Below are positions 14,835-34,914 of a stretch of 34,914 bases of DNA, in pieces; within the stretch, counting starts at the first letter, position 1, and each line of letters opens with the position of its first letter. The translations under genes and the position numbers were made by a program. The notes below the pieces were generated by a model. It saw nothing but the letters and a program-made list of their open reading frames with translations, ran no database searches and was not told where the DNA came from. This stretch comes from Candidatus Pacearchaeota archaeon (GTDB taxonomy: Archaea > Nanobdellota > Nanobdellia > Pacearchaeales > GW2011-AR1), in contig JAFCEY010000001.1 in NCBI GenBank assembly GCA_017608945.1, forward strand, positions 1-34,914, in the 5' to 3' direction.

Positions 14835-15236
14835 TTAATACACAAAATTTGCAATTTTAGCTACTTGGGGCCATCTTTCTAAAATTTCTCTTGCAACTGG
14901 CCCTTTAATCTGTGTTCCTTTTGGGTTTCCTTTTTCATCTTTTAATATTGCCACTGCGTTGTCTTCGAAAGTTACTCTCTCTCCGTCTTTTCTTTTATAA
15001 GGTTTTTTAATTCTTACTATTATAGCATCAAATACTTTTCCTTTCATTTCAGGAATTCCTCTTTTCACACTCACTTTCACCCAATCTGCAATTTTTGCTG
15101 ACATTTGTCTTCCTTTTTTTCCTTTTCCTTTTTTAACTGAAACAAGTCTTACAAGCCTTGCTCCGCTATTATCTGCAACTGTTAGTTGTGCTCCTAAATT
15201 AACTCCTCGTGTAGCTTTTGCACTTATTGCTTTCAT
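14835..15236 (-). CDS. rpl14: 50S ribosomal protein uL14
   Basis: 133 aa: LTVADNSGARLVRLVSV...VFDAIIVR.KKPYKR.DG..V.FEDNA. Confidence 0.93.
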   Translation of the reverse strand: MKAISAKATRGVNLGAQLTVADNSGARLVRLVSVKKGKGKKGRQMSAKIADWVKVSVKRGIPEMKGKVFDAIIVRIKKPYKRKDGERVTFEDNAVAILKDEKGNPKGTQIKGPVAREILERWPQVAKIANFVY

Positions 15237-24724: not shown

Positions 24725-24842
24725 GCCTCTGTCGCATAATGGTATTGCACCGGTCTTGAGAGCAGAACCTTTGGTTCTGCATCCCTTTTGACAAGATAAC
24801 CGGGCCCGAAAGGGCATCCAGGTTCGATTCCTGGCAGAGGCG
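24725..24842 (+). tRNA. tRNA-Ser (anticodon UGA) with a 37-nt intron at the canonical 37/38 position
   Basis: Hand-folded. Acceptor GCCTCTG/CAGAGGC, G73 discriminator. Anticodon stem CCGGT/ACCGG, loop CT-TGA-G[intron]A. Long variable arm GCCC-GAAA-GGGC. T arm CCAGG-TTCGATT-CCTGG. CCA is not encoded. Confidence 0.8.
24761..24797 (+). other. tRNA-Ser intron (bulge-helix-bulge type)
   Basis: CTTG (positions 32-35 of the tRNA) pairs with CAAG (24792-24795) and is flanked by 3-nt bulges AG|A and AU|A. The intron also holds a perfect 8-bp hairpin GCAGAACC-TTT-GGTTCTGC. The boundary can slide by 1 nt because A flanks both sides. Confidence 0.65.
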
Positions 24843-24847
24843 TAATA

Positions 24848-24920
24848 AGCTTCAGGCAAGATTTGAACTTGCGACCTCCATCTTACGAGGATGGCGCTCT
24901 AACCACTGAGCTACTGAAGC
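24848..24920 (-). tRNA. tRNA-Thr (anticodon CGU)
   Basis: Reverse complement: GCTTCAG-TA-GCTC-AGTGGTTA-GAGC-G-CCATC-CTCGTAA-GATGG-AGGTC-GCAAG-TTCAAAT-CTTGC-CTGAAGC-T. Perfect cloverleaf, no intron, CCA not encoded. Confidence 0.9.
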
Positions 24921-30584: not shown

Positions 30585-31256
30585 ATGACATTAAAGAAAA
30601 AAGATTTTGTTGAAATAGAATTTACAGGAAAAACTGCAGATGGGGAGATTTTTGACTCAAATATTGAAGAAGATCTTAAAAAGATAAATCCTAATCTGAA
30701 CTTGCCTGTTAAGGCAAAACCTTTAATTTTATGTTTAGGAGAAGGAATGTTTCTTAAACCAATTGAAGATTTTTTGATTGGGAAACCTGATACTCCTGCA
30801 AGTTATGAAATTAAACTCTCCCCAAAAGAAGCATTTGGAGAAAGAAATAAAGAATTGATACAAATTGTTCCCTTAAGAATTTTTCAACAAAACAATTTAA
30901 ATCCTGTTCCAAAAGCAATGTTTAATCTTGATGGAAAAATTGCAAAGGTTTTAGCTGTTTCTGGTGGAAGAGTTATTGTTGATTTTAATAATCCTCTTGC
31001 AGGAAAAAATGTAATTTACAAAATAAAAGTTTTGAGGAAAATTGAAGATATAAATGAAAAAATAAAAGCATTAATCTCATTTTTTTTCAAAAAAGAAATT
31101 GAATTTAAATTAGAAGGTAAAAAACTTGTTTTGAAAATTGAAAAGCCTATGGTAGAATATGCAAAGTTGTTTAAAGAAACTTTTAAAAACATTCTTGATT
31201 TGGATTTAGAAATCAAGGAAGAAAAGGAAGAGAAAGAAATTAGTAGAAAAGAATAA
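30585..31256 (+). CDS. FKBP-type peptidyl-prolyl cis-trans isomerase (long archaeal type with insert-in-flap and C-terminal domain)
   Basis: 223 aa: VEIEFTGKTADGEIFDSN...KEAFGERN...GRVIVDFNNPLAGKNVIYKIKVL. Confidence 0.8.
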   Translation: MTLKKKDFVEIEFTGKTADGEIFDSNIEEDLKKINPNLNLPVKAKPLILCLGEGMFLKPIEDFLIGKPDTPASYEIKLSPKEAFGERNKELIQIVPLRIFQQNNLNPVPKAMFNLDGKIAKVLAVSGGRVIVDFNNPLAGKNVIYKIKVLRKIEDINEKIKALISFFFKKEIEFKLEGKKLVLKIEKPMVEYAKLFKETFKNILDLDLEIKEEKEEKEISRKE

Positions 31257-32201
31257 TTATTTTAATTTTATTCCAATTTTTTCTAATGTATTCATCTTTT
31301 TATAATGAATCCTAATTTTTTTTAGAGTTCTTTTTTCTATTTGTCTTACTCTTTCTTTTGTTAAATCACAACCTCTTCCAATCTCTTCAAGTGTTTTGCC
31401 TTCCATTCTATCTAATAATATTTTTCTTTCTCTTTTTGTTACATTCATTTCATTAAGAATATTGTGGAGAGTTACTCGATTGAGAATTTTTTCTTCTATA
31501 ATATATTTTTTATCAGGCATATAATCTAATGAGGGATGTTTTTCTATAAAATATAAAGACCCTGTAAAATTTGATAATTCCTCGTTTGTTGATTTTTTGT
31601 TGGGGATGACCTCTAAGTTATCTTTAAATTCTCTAATTTCTTTTATTTTTTGTTGTTTATTTAAGGGGATTTTTATTAGTCCTGATTTATTTTTCAATGC
31701 TTTTTTAATTTTACTCTTCACCCACCAGTTTGCATAACTGAGAAAATAGTAGCCTCTCGTAGGATCATATTTTTCAAAAGCTATTACTAACCCTTCTAAA
31801 CCTTCACTAATAAGGTCTCTTATTTCTATATTTGGATTTTGATATTTCTTTGCTTCTTTTTCAACATATCTTATATTTGGAGTCAGTAGTCCGTTTCTAA
31901 TATATTCCATTTGATGTTCTAATTTCTTTAAGTTTTCTGAATCTTTTTTTGAGTTAAGATATTCTTTTATCTTTTTGTAAGTTGTATAAAGAGAAGAAAA
32001 AAGTTCTGAATCTCTGACAACAGGATATTTTCCAACCTCTCTATATATTAATTCTTCTATGCTCGGAATTTTTGAGTTAGGGGATTTTTTCTTTAGTTCA
32101 GTTTTATTTTTTTTATTTTGGATTTGTGTATTAATATATTCTTTATATTTTCTTATTGCTAGATCTGCTTCTTTAAGCAATTCATTTTCTGTAATTTTCA
32201 T
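31257..32201 (-). CDS. Sigma-70 family RNA polymerase sigma factor (regions 1.2, 2, 3.0 and 4 present), a bacterial-type protein in an archaeal context
   Basis: 314 aa. r1.2 IEELIYREVGKYPVVRDSELF. r2 NIRYVEKEAKKY...IRDLISEGLEGLVIAFEKYDPTRGYYFLSYANWWVKSKIKKAL. r3.0 LIKIPLNKQQKIKEI. r4 KRERKILLDRMEGKTLEEIGRGCDLTKERVRQIEKRTLKKIR. Confidence 0.85.
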   Translation of the reverse strand: MKITENELLKEADLAIRKYKEYINTQIQNKKNKTELKKKSPNSKIPSIEELIYREVGKYPVVRDSELFSSLYTTYKKIKEYLNSKKDSENLKKLEHQMEYIRNGLLTPNIRYVEKEAKKYQNPNIEIRDLISEGLEGLVIAFEKYDPTRGYYFLSYANWWVKSKIKKALKNKSGLIKIPLNKQQKIKEIREFKDNLEVIPNKKSTNEELSNFTGSLYFIEKHPSLDYMPDKKYIIEEKILNRVTLHNILNEMNVTKRERKILLDRMEGKTLEEIGRGCDLTKERVRQIEKRTLKKIRIHYKKMNTLEKIGIKLK

Positions 32202-32303
32202 TTTTAAACCATAAAATTAATTTATTTATTTTTTATAAATATTAATGCAAAATAAAACAAAAAAAACAACAATTCTTATAAATAGTTAATTCTACTTTTA
32301 AAT

Positions 32304-33380
32304 ATGGAGAATATTTATGAGAACTCTGAAGCACTTTCTATTGATAGAGAATTAGAAGAGCTTTTGAAAAAACAAACTACAAAAATTAAGGTTGTAGGTA
32401 TTGGCGGAGGCGGAGGCAACTCTTTAAGTAGGATGAGAGAAATTGGAATCAAGGGAGGAGAATTTATAGCAATTAATACTGATGCTCAAGATTTATTATA
32501 TACTAATTCTGATCAAAAAATTTTAATTGGTAGAGAGTTAACACAAGGTTTAGGGGCAGGAAGTAATCCAAGAATTGGAGAGGAGGCAGCAAGAGAGTCA
32601 GAATCTGAAATAAGGAAAAAAATGATGGGAAGTGATATGATTTTTATTACTTGTGGGTTAGGAGGAGGCACAGGAACAGGTGCTGCTCCTATAATTGCTT
32701 CTTTAGCAAAAAAACAAGGAGCTTTAACAATAGGAGTTGTGACATTACCTTTTACAATAGAAGGAAAAAAAAGAATAGAAAATGCTATGGATGGTTTAGA
32801 AAGACTTGAATCAGTAGTTGATACATTAATTGTAATCCCAAATGATAAGCTCTTGGAGTTGGCTCCTGAATTGCCTTTACATACTGCATTTAAAATTGCT
32901 GACGAAATTTTGACAAATGCTGTAAAAGGAATTACTGAACTTGTAACTGTTCCTGGGCTTGTGAATTTGGATTTTGCAGATGTGAAAGCAGTTATGATTG
33001 ACGGTGGTGTTTCTTTAATAGGGATGGGAGAATCAGATAGTACTCAAAGGGCTATTGATGCTGTAGAAAAAGCAATAAATAATCCTCTTATAGATGTTGA
33101 TATTTCAAGTGCTACAGGAGCTTTGGTAAATATTGTTGGTGGAAAAGATATGACTTTAGATGAGTGCAAGCAAATTGTTGAAACTATTGGTAATAGATTA
33201 AGTTCAGATGCAAAATTAATATGGGGGGCTCAGACTTCAGAAGATATGGATAAATCAATTAGAGTTTTATTAATTGTTACTGGAGTGAAATCAAGCCAAA
33301 TTTTAGGACAAGGAGAAACAATAGAAGAAATGAAGCATAGAGAAATTGAAGAAGAGCTTGGAATTGAGTTTTTTGAATAG
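32304..33380 (+). CDS. ftsZ: Cell division GTPase FtsZ
   Basis: 358 aa: KVVGIGGGGGNSL, NTDAQDL, GLGAGSNP, tubulin signature GLGGGTGTGAAPIIA, IPNDKLL. Confidence 0.95.
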   Translation: MENIYENSEALSIDRELEELLKKQTTKIKVVGIGGGGGNSLSRMREIGIKGGEFIAINTDAQDLLYTNSDQKILIGRELTQGLGAGSNPRIGEEAARESESEIRKKMMGSDMIFITCGLGGGTGTGAAPIIASLAKKQGALTIGVVTLPFTIEGKKRIENAMDGLERLESVVDTLIVIPNDKLLELAPELPLHTAFKIADEILTNAVKGITELVTVPGLVNLDFADVKAVMIDGGVSLIGMGESDSTQRAIDAVEKAINNPLIDVDISSATGALVNIVGGKDMTLDECKQIVETIGNRLSSDAKLIWGAQTSEDMDKSIRVLLIVTGVKSSQILGQGETIEEMKHREIEEELGIEFFE

Positions 33381-33463: not shown

Positions 33464-33619
33464 ATGAAATTTAATGTTAAAGAACTTTTAATCAAAGTAA
33501 AGTGAAAGCCGACAAAAAAAGAATTTGTTATGGTTGCAAAAGTTTCTGCTATTGGAATCGCAATTCTCGGTTTTTTGGGATTTTTGATTGCGATAATTAT
33601 GAAGGAGTTTGTTAGGTGA
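33464..33619 (+). CDS. secE: Preprotein translocase subunit SecE (Sec61 gamma) interrupted by an in-frame TGA at 33503-33505
   Basis: My translation: MKFNVKELLIKVK*KPTKKEFVMVAKVSAIGIAILGFLGFLIAIIMKEFVR. It shows a basic amphipathic helix, the KPTxxEF hinge and a single TM helix, which is the archaeal SecE pattern. Not in the ORF track. Confidence 0.6.
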
Positions 33620-33745
33620 TATCATAAACTAAACGATTTGTCTCTCTTCTCTCATCATTAATTTGACAATTTAATGGAAAATAAAATTTAATTTTCCACC
33701 ACAATAAATTATAAAAATATAATTCAATTTTATTCTTTATAAAAT

Positions 33746-34914
33746 ATGAACCTAGAAAATCTCTTGAAAAAAATCAAGAAGGCAAAAAATCACGTAAGAA
33801 ATGGATTGATCGCAGGATTAGTTGCTTCTGGATTATTTTTTTATTCATGTAATATAAATCCTCCAAAACCTGAACCAGAGCCACCAAAGCCAGATGAAGA
33901 AAATGAACTTTCAGAAAATACTCATATTTTGCCAGAACAGGATGCTCTTAAAATAACTGCTCTTTATGATGACGAAATAATTCTTTCAGAACCAATTTCT
34001 TATTTGTCTCCAGGTGATGTGATAGTTTCTAGTATTAGCGATGTAGCTCCTAATGGGGTTTTAAGAAAAGTGGAATATATTTCAGGAGATGGAAGAACAT
34101 TGTATACAGAGCCAGCGAATCTTGAAGAAGCTTTAAAAAATGCTGATTTTGAATTTCAAGGAAAACTTTCGCCGATTGATGTTAAATCTTTTTCTGGAAA
34201 AAAAGGAGTTTCAGAGATTTCAAATCCAAAATCATTATTTGATTTTAATATAAATCTTGATAATGTTGTTCTTTTTGACCAAGTAAAAGCAGATGGATAT
34301 ATCTCCTTTAATTCAGATTTTTATTTAAAATTTAAGATTAAAGATTTTAACCTTGATAAATTAATCTTTAAAAATATAACAAATGAAGATTCTAAAATTG
34401 AAATAAGTGCCTTGAACAATCTTGAAAACATTGGGAAGGAAGTGGAAATTGCTGAATATTATTTTCATCCTTTTATAGCAGGATATATTCCAGGAACAGT
34501 TTTTCCAATTATAATAACTCCAATACTTGAAGTAAATGTTGGTATGGATGGGAGTATTTCACCAATTGTTACTAGTGTAACTCAAAATGCAAATTTAACT
34601 GCTGGCTTAAGTTACGAAAATAGACAATGGAATCCAATATTTGATTTTTCAAATTATTTTTCTTGGATTCCTCCAGATTCACCAGAAATTTCATATCTAA
34701 AAGCTTATGCAGGACCAAGATTAAATTTTTTATTATATGGAGTAGCTGGCCCTTATGGAAAAATAGATTTTTATCTAAAATTAGATGCAGAACAATCTCC
34801 TTGGAAACTTTATGGTGGATTAGAAGCTGATTTAGGAGTAAAAATGCAGATATTTAGTTGGGATATAGCAGATTATTCTAAAAAAGTGATTGATTATGAG
34901 AAAGAATTGGCGAG
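33746..34914 (+). CDS. Hypothetical secreted/lipoprotein-like surface protein; 3' end runs off the window
   Basis: Open frame from ATG 33746 to the window end (my translation). Signal-anchor LIAGLVASGLFFYSC with a Cys lipobox-like site, then a Pro/Glu linker PPKPEPEPPKPDEE and a beta-rich domain. Confidence 0.6.
   Translation, partial: MNLENLLKKIKKAKNHVRNGLIAGLVASGLFFYSCNINPPKPEPEPPKPDEENELSENTHILPEQDALKITALYDDEIILSEPISYLSPGDVIVSSISDVAPNGVLRKVEYISGDGRTLYTEPANLEEALKNADFEFQGKLSPIDVKSFSGKKGVSEISNPKSLFDFNINLDNVVLFDQVKADGYISFNSDFYLKFKIKDFNLDKLIFKNITNEDSKIEISALNNLENIGKEVEIAEYYFHPFIAGYIPGTVFPIIITPILEVNVGMDGSISPIVTSVTQNANLTAGLSYENRQWNPIFDFSNYFSWIPPDSPEISYLKAYAGPRLNFLLYGVAGPYGKIDFYLKLDAEQSPWKLYGGLEADLGVKMQIFSWDIADYSKKVIDYEKELA

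Follow-up and report, generated by a model that had tools for sequence, protein, structure and literature searches.

The 34,914-nucleotide stretch of DNA analysed here, referred to throughout as the window, comprises positions 1 to 34,914 of contig JAFCEY010000001.1 (assembly GCA_017608945.1, Candidatus Pacearchaeota archaeon) and carries on its minus strand an open reading frame (ORF) of the bacterial sigma-70 family amid archaeal housekeeping genes. This ORF, the sigma gene, lies between a gene for an FKBP-type peptidyl-prolyl isomerase (PPIase) and ftsZ. The features of the locus are the following, with amino acid (aa) positions counted along the sigma protein.

31257..32201, minus strand: sigma-70 family ORF of 314 aa with an ATG start and a TAA stop, recognised through Pfam, NCBIfam, PDB and AlphaFold2 (AF2)/Foldseek
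31902..32201, minus strand: N-terminal 100 aa; Lys-rich helix at aa 5-34, region-1.2-like segment at aa 48-64, clade-specific helix at aa 65-90
31686..31880, minus strand: sigma domain 2, regions 2.1-2.4 (aa 108-172), Pfam Sigma70_r2
31554..31685, minus strand: region 3.0 followed by region 3.1 in truncated form (aa 173-216), with gaps relative to orthologues and bacterial sigmas
31491..31553, minus strand: shortened region 3.2 linker, the 'sigma finger' region (aa 217-237), disordered in the AF2 model with a predicted local distance difference test score (pLDDT) below 50, and rich in strain polymorphism
31311..31439, minus strand: sigma domain 4, region 4.2 helix-turn-helix (aa 255-297), Pfam Sigma70_r4
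30585..31256, plus strand: left flank, FKBP-type PPIase (Pfam FKBP26_IF and FKBP_C), whose stop codon abuts the sigma stop
32304..33380, plus strand: right flank, ftsZ (Pfam Tubulin and FtsZ_C)

The ORF at 31257-32201 does encode a sigma-70 family protein, both defining domains of which scored above cutoff in Pfam: Sigma70_r2 (PF04542) at aa 108-172 with 43.2 bits against a cutoff of 24, and Sigma70_r4 (PF04545) at aa 255-297 with 39.7 bits against 24.1. The superfamily model TIGR02937 (84.8 bits, cutoff 42.9) was the sole NCBIfam model to exceed its own cutoff. The NCBIfam models for RpoD, RpoS and SigA matched aa ~85-213 with E values of 1e-27 to 1e-32, and their best equivalog scores (96-112 bits) remained far under cutoffs of 354-554; the protein falls outside every RpoD, RpoS and SigA equivalog. 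SigA, RpoS and RpoD chains in PDB were matched by phmmer at an E value of 5e-24 in two blocks (aa 103-211 and 240-298). The AF2 model, with a pLDDT of 83.6, returned sigma chains in holoenzyme structures as its top Foldseek matches over ~300 aligned columns, and the PDB and Foldseek matches alike were group 1/2 sigmas. The bacterial-type sigma-70 gene reported by a first-pass annotation, made from the sequence letters, is accordingly borne out.

The same annotation had described a full-length factor with the sigma-70 regions in order, which holds for regions 2 and 4 by Pfam and less well for the remainder. Sigma70_r1_2 (PF00140) gave no match at E<=1 in the window protein, region 1.2 being recognisable by alignment alone, and Sigma70_r3 (PF04539), present in orthologues P0129, P0130 and P0131, gave none either. 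Relative to orthologues and bacterial sigmas the protein is shorter by ~9 aa in region 3.1 and by ~15 aa in the region 3.2 finger/linker, so that "full-length" was a generous description. The window lineage has no third helix in sigma domain 3, and the stretch between the equivalents of E. coli S506 and L551 is ~15 residues shorter. The N-terminus is modelled by AF2 as a Lys-rich helix with no acidic region 1.1; the N-terminal 100 aa, including the clade-specific helix with its motif F-SLY--YKKI--YL, are common only to a five-member archaeal clade. A canonical holoenzyme function of the window protein appears doubtful.

The contig is that of a Pacearchaeota/Woesearchaeota-like DPANN archaeon. 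The genes around the sigma gene are archaeal and encode aIF5A, an L40e-like zinc ribbon, Taw1, a site-2 (M50) protease, AglB/STT3, L19e, prefoldin, SecY and FtsZ, and the window FtsZ is 70-84% identical to the FtsZ of 80 species-level metagenome-assembled genomes, nearly all of which are labelled Pacearchaeota, Woesearchaeota or Nanoarchaeota. An intron-containing tRNA in the window likewise speaks for an archaeal host. Among the archaeal markers named at annotation, aIF5A and the L40e-like gene were confirmed along with others, while SecE is present with an in-frame TGA, to which we return below. The GC content of the sigma gene is 25.6% and that of its third codon positions (GC3) is 17%, matching neighbours with a GC3 of 14-22%, as had been noted by eye.

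That a bacterial fragment was misjoined to archaeal DNA, either as an assembly chimera or through bin contamination, is improbable in the extreme. An identical locus layout is found in 20 contigs across four lineages, drawn from JGI, ENA, Logan and NCBI, and every carrier contig that is long enough presents ftsZ, the divergent sigma gene, the convergent FKBP gene, aIF5A, L40e, the M50 protease and Taw1. The junctions shared by these 20 contigs (FKBP stop with sigma stop; sigma start, spacer and ftsZ) span sigma identities of 42-100%, the composition of the sigma gene is that of its flanks, and all 20 contigs hold intact sigma copies. Since the same locus recurs in independent contigs from different samples and assemblers, misassembly is not at issue here, and the possibility of a chimera, which the first-pass annotation had asked to be checked, can be set aside. 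A fifth lineage, L096, is represented by a 1.1-kb contig with no flanking genes and stands outside the locus count.

Two public records with bacterial labels, L059 (DATJPO010000038.1, 'Candidatus Omnitrophota bacterium') and L068 (JAHYJW010000002.1, 'Patescibacteria group bacterium'), show archaeal synteny (M50-L40e-aIF5A-FKBP-FtsZ), and their FtsZ is 78-82% identical to that of the window; they are probably mislabelled or contaminated bins.

The sigma gene is confined to a very small orthologous clade. When 1.84 billion representative proteins were searched with a profile, five clusters at 50% identity were the only ones to match over the full length, N-terminus included. Orthologues occur in four lineages besides that of the window (L086, L087, L089 and L096), with ORFs of 314-344 codons in the five lineages and sigma proteins 42-45% identical between lineages. 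Relatives were anchored on FtsZ, and six-frame ORFs within +/-6 kb were compared with the sigma profile in each of 80 species; none of these 80 loci held a sigma homologue near ftsZ. The order Taw1-M50-L40e-aIF5A-FKBP-FtsZ is kept in ~70 of the 80, mostly with FKBP adjoining the ftsZ promoter, and FKBP is followed directly by ftsZ in most of ~75 relatives. The absence of the gene from these 80 loci, together with the gene order conserved in relatives, identifies it as a single-gene insertion into conserved synteny. Syntenic orthologues, a survey of which the annotation had suggested, are found at the same FKBP/ftsZ site in four lineages.

In a neighbour-joining tree of FtsZ, FKBP, aIF5A and M50, the carriers (window, L087 and L089) share one subclade with sigma-less genomes. 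The nearest relative of L089, L004 (FtsZ 95% and aIF5A 93% identical), is without the gene, and the sigma gene is dispensable to that extent. The tree of the sigma proteins, (L096,(window,(L086,(L087,L089)))), matches the marker-gene tree for the three lineages that the latter covers. The archaeal clade is monophyletic, and a donor phylogeny gave no specific bacterial sister group; the nearest named matches are scattered over Spirochaetes, Fusobacteria, Bacteroidales, the candidate phyla radiation (CPR) and Bacilli at 27-40% identity. Scanning GTDB species representatives with the sigma alignment and the clade-specific pattern detected no relatives, and scanning metagenome contigs with the alignment yielded two distant matches only (31-33%). 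The simplest history consistent with these trees would be one ancient acquisition, with vertical descent and repeated losses thereafter.

Full-length sigma-like proteins also form a second small clade (P0003/P0128; contig L003, which is Logan SRR10445545_14618), 30-37% identical to the window protein and with an acidic N-terminus. The L003 contig has 27% GC, and the neighbours of its gene are without Pfam or PHROG annotation save UbiA, a methyltransferase and DUF6020.

The junction between FKBP and ftsZ holds other cargo in L009, L023, L030, L034, L035, L043, L059 and L064, and further cargo in L019, L020, L031, L042, L050 and L055. The cargo is usually an ORF of ~180 aa on either strand, DUF218/YdcF-like by eye, and otherwise consists of unrelated ORFs. 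It follows that the junction tolerates insertions, and it appears to be a recurrent insertion spot.

The spacer between the sigma gene and ftsZ measures 102 nt in the window, as annotated, and 81-103 nt among the sigma-bearing loci. Two promoter elements were located in it.

32229..32242, minus strand: A/T-rich TATA-like element located ~30 nt upstream of the sigma ATG, putatively the sigma gene's archaeal promoter
32266..32285, plus strand: BRE/TATA promoter of ftsZ, ACAACAATTCTTATAAATAG, 19 nt upstream of the ftsZ ATG

The sole conserved element of the spacer is ACAA(C/T)AATTCTTATAAA, ~20 nt upstream of the ftsZ ATG. The motif aaATCACAATAAT(y)CTTATAAA precedes ftsZ in all sigma-bearing loci and in most of the 80 sigma-less relatives, and a BRE/TATA-like motif stands 20-25 nt before the ftsZ ATG in most of the 80 Pacearchaeota/Woesearchaeota species (L004-L083), a distance that implies nearly leaderless ftsZ mRNAs. 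By its recurrence in these genomes the element is recognised as the native archaeal promoter of ftsZ, separate from the sigma insertion. Because the conserved spacer motif is the ordinary ftsZ promoter and is also found in sigma-less relatives, the divergent arrangement of sigma and ftsZ, to which the first-pass annotation had drawn attention, is incidental. Regulation of ftsZ by sigma through the shared spacer was considered and rejected on the same ground. On the sigma side, TATA-like elements lie 22-32 nt before the sigma ATG across loci (22-30 nt in L089, L087 and L086); they may fit an archaeal-type, nearly leaderless expression, though weakly so given a genome of 28% GC. The monophyly of the clade without a bacterial sister, the host-like GC and GC3 and the archaeal-style TATA element together fit horizontal acquisition, one of the explanations offered at annotation, and long residence; the repurposing proposed along with it is plausible too.

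The sigma gene is the fastest-evolving gene of its neighbourhood. Between L087 and L089, FtsZ is 93% identical, Taw1 84%, the M50 protease 72% and FKBP 72%, as against 45% for sigma; the rate of nonsynonymous substitution (dN) is 0.47 for sigma and 0.05-0.19 for eight neighbouring genes, so that sigma evolves 2.5-10 times faster than its neighbours. The synonymous rate (dS) of sigma in this pair is saturated (~1.3) and dN/dS is <=0.35. Intact ORFs of 314-344 codons in five lineages despite a saturated dS, together with dN/dS <=0.35, argue against a pseudogene, in agreement with the first-pass annotation.

Four near-identical strains (window, L095, L102 and L103) were compared for polymorphism. 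Nonsynonymous and synonymous polymorphic codons numbered 14:5 in sigma and 6:14 in six neighbouring genes together (Fisher p=0.010), and the density of nonsynonymous polymorphism in sigma was 12-fold above that of the six neighbours (p=1.5e-7). The changes are patchy, being located at aa 204-214, aa 231-235 and aa 276-279. They include KKYII to DRYSL at aa 231-235 (31497-31511), within the region 3.2 linker, where four of the seven replacements between the window and L095 fall, and RGCD to KDYN at aa 276-279 (31365-31376), just ahead of the recognition helix. Such runs of adjacent replacements suggest recombination with a divergent allele or multi-nucleotide events. The gene displays residual purifying selection in the long term and relaxed or diversifying selection at strain level. 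That it is accessory, patchily distributed and unusually fast evolving goes beyond what the first-pass annotation had described.

Selection can also be followed residue by residue. The five clade members were compared with positions at least 85% conserved in 59 bacterial relatives, E. coli numbering being used. Region 2.2 is the best-conserved segment within the clade (59% identity) and region 4.1 the worst (31%), with region 4.2 and the region-1.2-like segment at 53% and the helix at aa 65-90 at 52%. The ~60 invariant residues of the clade are concentrated in functional helices. In region 2, the equivalents of D403, E407, G408, G411, L412, A415, F427 and Y430 are invariant; in the recognition helix, all five orthologues retain those of E585, R586, R588 and Q589 without change. 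The beta' coiled-coil is contacted by four region 2.2 residues, E. coli 403, 406, 407 and 409 (PMC8321222). Q406 is changed in all five members to S, D or N (S in the window), and N409 is lost in all five (L, S, I, S and W; L in the window). In region 2.3, F427 and Y430 are kept in 5/5 orthologues, W434 in 4/5 and W433 in 1/5, and the window protein keeps all the aromatics Y425, F427, Y430, W433 and W434. The conserved bacterial Y-L of region 1.2 is replaced in the clade. Further replacements in the window are Q437 to S, T440 to K, R441 to K and R584 to K. The earlier statement that the functionally critical positions are intact holds for the tryptophan dyad of the window protein and fails for Q406, N409, Q437, T440, R441 and R584.

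Where bacterial transcription initiation is defined by sigma factors, archaea rely on TBP, TFB and TFE. The beta flap-tip helix is the docking site of sigma region 4. Absence of this helix has been described as common in archaea (PMC8321222), and the usual TBP/TFB/TFE set has been reported in DPANN (PMC8204110). Considering the TBP/TFB-type promoters of the host and the common absence of the flap-tip helix in archaea, the sigma protein is most likely no canonical initiation subunit. Our preferred reading, to which we give a probability of roughly one half, is that it may be a domesticated, accessory, stand-alone DNA-binding regulator that works without a bacterial RNA polymerase (RNAP); a bacterial core RNAP is presumed absent from the host, of whose genome the analysis covered 35 kb. 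A bacterial sigma-70 gene with a group 1/2-like layout (regions 1.2, 2, 3 and 4) would have been horizontally acquired and domesticated in a small Pacearchaeota/Woesearchaeota-like sub-lineage, by a single-gene insertion, made once, into the gap that separates the FKBP 3' end from the ftsZ promoter, and would then have descended vertically and been lost in several sister lineages. Transcription of the gene probably starts at an archaeal TATA-type promoter of its own. Its product is more likely a non-essential, sequence-specific DNA binder that acts through its invariant region 4.2 helix, with domain 2 possibly contributing. Family identity, the archaeal setting, the one conserved insertion site, vertical descent, patchy presence and dispensability, faster evolution under residual purifying selection and the erosion of region 3 have been demonstrated; DNA binding, expression and the absence of a bacterial core are inferred.

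Region 1.1 normally keeps free sigma70 off DNA (PMC8321222), and the archaeal protein has no such acidic autoinhibitory region. B. subtilis sigma-A has been reported to be capable of specific promoter DNA binding in the absence of core (PMC3035472). The fast evolution of the protein and its amino acid polymorphism at strain level point to an accessory, niche- or conflict-related role and not to housekeeping.

Several observations weigh against a stand-alone DNA binder. The best-conserved helix, that of region 2.2, serves bacterial sigmas to bind RNAP, a hint that a protein partner is involved; the invariant equivalents of D403 and E407 are beta' coiled-coil contacts that are not obviously needed for DNA binding. 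No conserved candidate operator was found in the sigma-ftsZ spacer, in which only the native ftsZ promoter is conserved. Near-neutral short-term dN/dS and repeated loss would also fit a gene on its way out.

The conservation of region 2.2 in a clade otherwise 42-45% identical gives reason to consider a hybrid initiation or RNAP-binding factor, in which domain 2 would sit on the clamp coiled-coil of archaeal Rpo1 and direct or modulate promoter opening. The Rpo1 clamp coiled-coil is homologous to the beta' clamp helices and serves TFE and Spt5 as their site. Invariant D403, E407, G408, G411 and L412 and the mostly kept Y430, F427 and W434 are in line with such binding, and 403 and 407 are two of the four contact residues of the beta' coiled-coil (PMC8321222). 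The other two are changed in every member of the clade (Q406 to S, D or N; N409 lost in 5/5), region 4.1 is poorly conserved and its flap-tip docking site is reported as commonly absent in archaea, the finger/linker is truncated in the window lineage, sigma-70-type promoter-like sites are unenriched and close relatives dispense with the gene, all of which makes the hybrid factor rather improbable. Between positions 15000 and 34914 the promoter-like sites numbered 82, as compared with 86.1±9.6 in shuffles, in a scan of low power at 28% GC and with a consensus that may not be this protein's own. A working RNAP-binding factor in the archaeon, with region 2.2 on the Rpo1 clamp and region 4.2 reading DNA, is given a slightly smaller chance still. 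If true, a small DPANN lineage would have hybrid promoter selection or opening, or a sigma that competes with TFE and Spt5 at the clamp.

A relic in slow decay, acquired by chance, without current function and being lost lineage by lineage, would account for the patchy distribution of a gene missing even from the nearest relative, the 14:5 nonsynonymous excess among strains, the lineage-specific deletions of regions 3.1-3.2 and the loss of near-invariant bacterial residues. It is hard to reconcile with ORFs kept in five lineages despite a dS of ~1.3 in a 26% GC gene in which stops arise easily, with dN/dS <=0.35 and ~60 invariant residues in functional helices, and with intact copies in 20/20 contigs; we hold it to be unlikely, if less so than the hybrid factor. 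A conflict or mobile-element gene, that is, a virus- or element-derived regulator (defence, anti-defence or superinfection control) in a variable hotspot under arms-race evolution, draws on the different cargo at the FKBP|ftsZ junction of other relatives, on fast patch-wise diversification such as RGCD to KDYN beside the recognition helix, on the rpoS-like sigma genes reported on DPANN viruses and a prophage (PMC12647753) and on the best NCBIfam and PADLOC match, the sigma-like MzaA of an anti-phage system. That match covers the generic sigma part and the other Mza genes are not present; the locus is a single gene in fixed position and of vertical descent, with no integrase, repeats or other mobile-element genes adjoining, and IMG/VR and phage genomes gave generic matches of 27-34% only, without any clade member. 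The odds of this origin seem to us about as low as those of the hybrid factor.

Lower again is the likelihood of an inter-domain effector directed against the RNAP of a bacterial partner, host or competitor in the manner of phage-encoded sigma factors. Core-binding and melting residues retained with no obvious archaeal use, along with rapid evolution, would suit this role. The N-terminus, modelled as a soluble Lys-rich helix, bears nothing like a signal peptide, no secretion system lies at the locus, and the loss of N409, the change of Q406, the unconserved W433 and the truncated linker fit poorly with an attack on a bacterial enzyme.

Among known systems close to the window protein are the bacterial group 1/2 sigmas (SigA/RpoD, RpoS and SigB), with which it shares domain order and fold as well as D403, E407, F427, Y430, W434, E585, R586, R588 and Q589. 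Unlike these, it has a clade-specific N-terminus, no acidic region 1.1 and a truncated region 3.1-3.2, and it resides in a host with TATA/BRE promoters, where it is non-essential and fast evolving. Phage-encoded sigmas resemble it in the shared sigma core only (PHROG 351, 122.7 bits) and no phage gene context is present. The similarity to MzaA of the MZA anti-phage system (88-114 bits) extends over the sigma part only, at positions 375-525 of 683 in the PADLOC profile and 460-585 of 726 in NCBIfam (113.9 bits, cutoff 800); MzaA has ~700 aa and partner Mza genes in its operon, whereas the window protein has 314 aa and FKBP and ftsZ as neighbours. Searches of IMG/VR, a phage genome collection, PHROGs and PADLOC revealed no clade members, only generic sigma similarity and no defence-system context. 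The sigmas of DPANN viruses (Nat Commun 2025, PMC12647753) are likewise divergent sigma-70-family members; the window gene is chromosomal and has no viral genes around it.

The presence of sigma-70-class genes in DPANN, especially in Woesearchaeota, was reported by Castelle et al. 2021 as fam00359, with mis-binning excluded, anti-sigma factors absent and the mechanism left open (PMC8204110). The phenomenon is the same, a sigma-70-class gene on a contig with DPANN genes and no anti-sigma factor close by, so that our finding rediscovers a published one and the novelty implied at annotation was overstated. The main text of that paper is without locus, clade or evolutionary analysis, and the window clade adds a fixed site, patchiness and acceleration. 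New here are the very small orthologous clade, the fixed insertion site, the sister genomes with and without the gene, the accelerated evolution and the erosion of region 3 and of core-contact residues.

A sigma gene under selection in archaea amounts to a natural experiment, a sigma without its polymerase. The map of selection that results lists the region 2.2 and region 4.2 helices as kept and N409, W433, region 4.1 and the sigma finger as discarded. A set of orthologues with a fixed address makes the question tractable whether the protein works on DNA alone, with archaeal RNAP or in conflict. Being rare, dispensable and fast evolving, the gene provides no evidence for general bacterial-type initiation in archaea.

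Three further observations concern the rest of the window. The SecE/Sec61-gamma gene downstream of ftsZ (33466-33619, plus strand) contains a TGA in frame at 33505-33507. Relative to the intact 73-aa SecE of strain L095 (3529-3750, minus strand), the window copy lacks 66 bp, of which 25 bp are one copy of a tandem duplication and 41 bp are additional, and the TGA is formed at the deletion junction. Recoding of the TGA was ruled out by this comparison; either this essential gene is disrupted in the window allele, or its sequence collapsed during assembly. Right after the SecE stop, the window (33620-34914) and L095 (1-3528) diverge completely, the strains being otherwise 98-100% identical: a large ORF runs in the window from 33747 off the end, and L095 has a 476-aa ORF and an N6/N4 DNA methyltransferase. 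The region past SecE looks like a strain-variable island beside the conserved block. Finally, an intron-containing tRNA that ARAGORN misses lies at 24725-24842 on the plus strand (118 nt, full 71-position Rfam model, intron of ~45 nt), head-to-head with a tRNA-Thr(CGT) at 24848-24920 on the minus strand.

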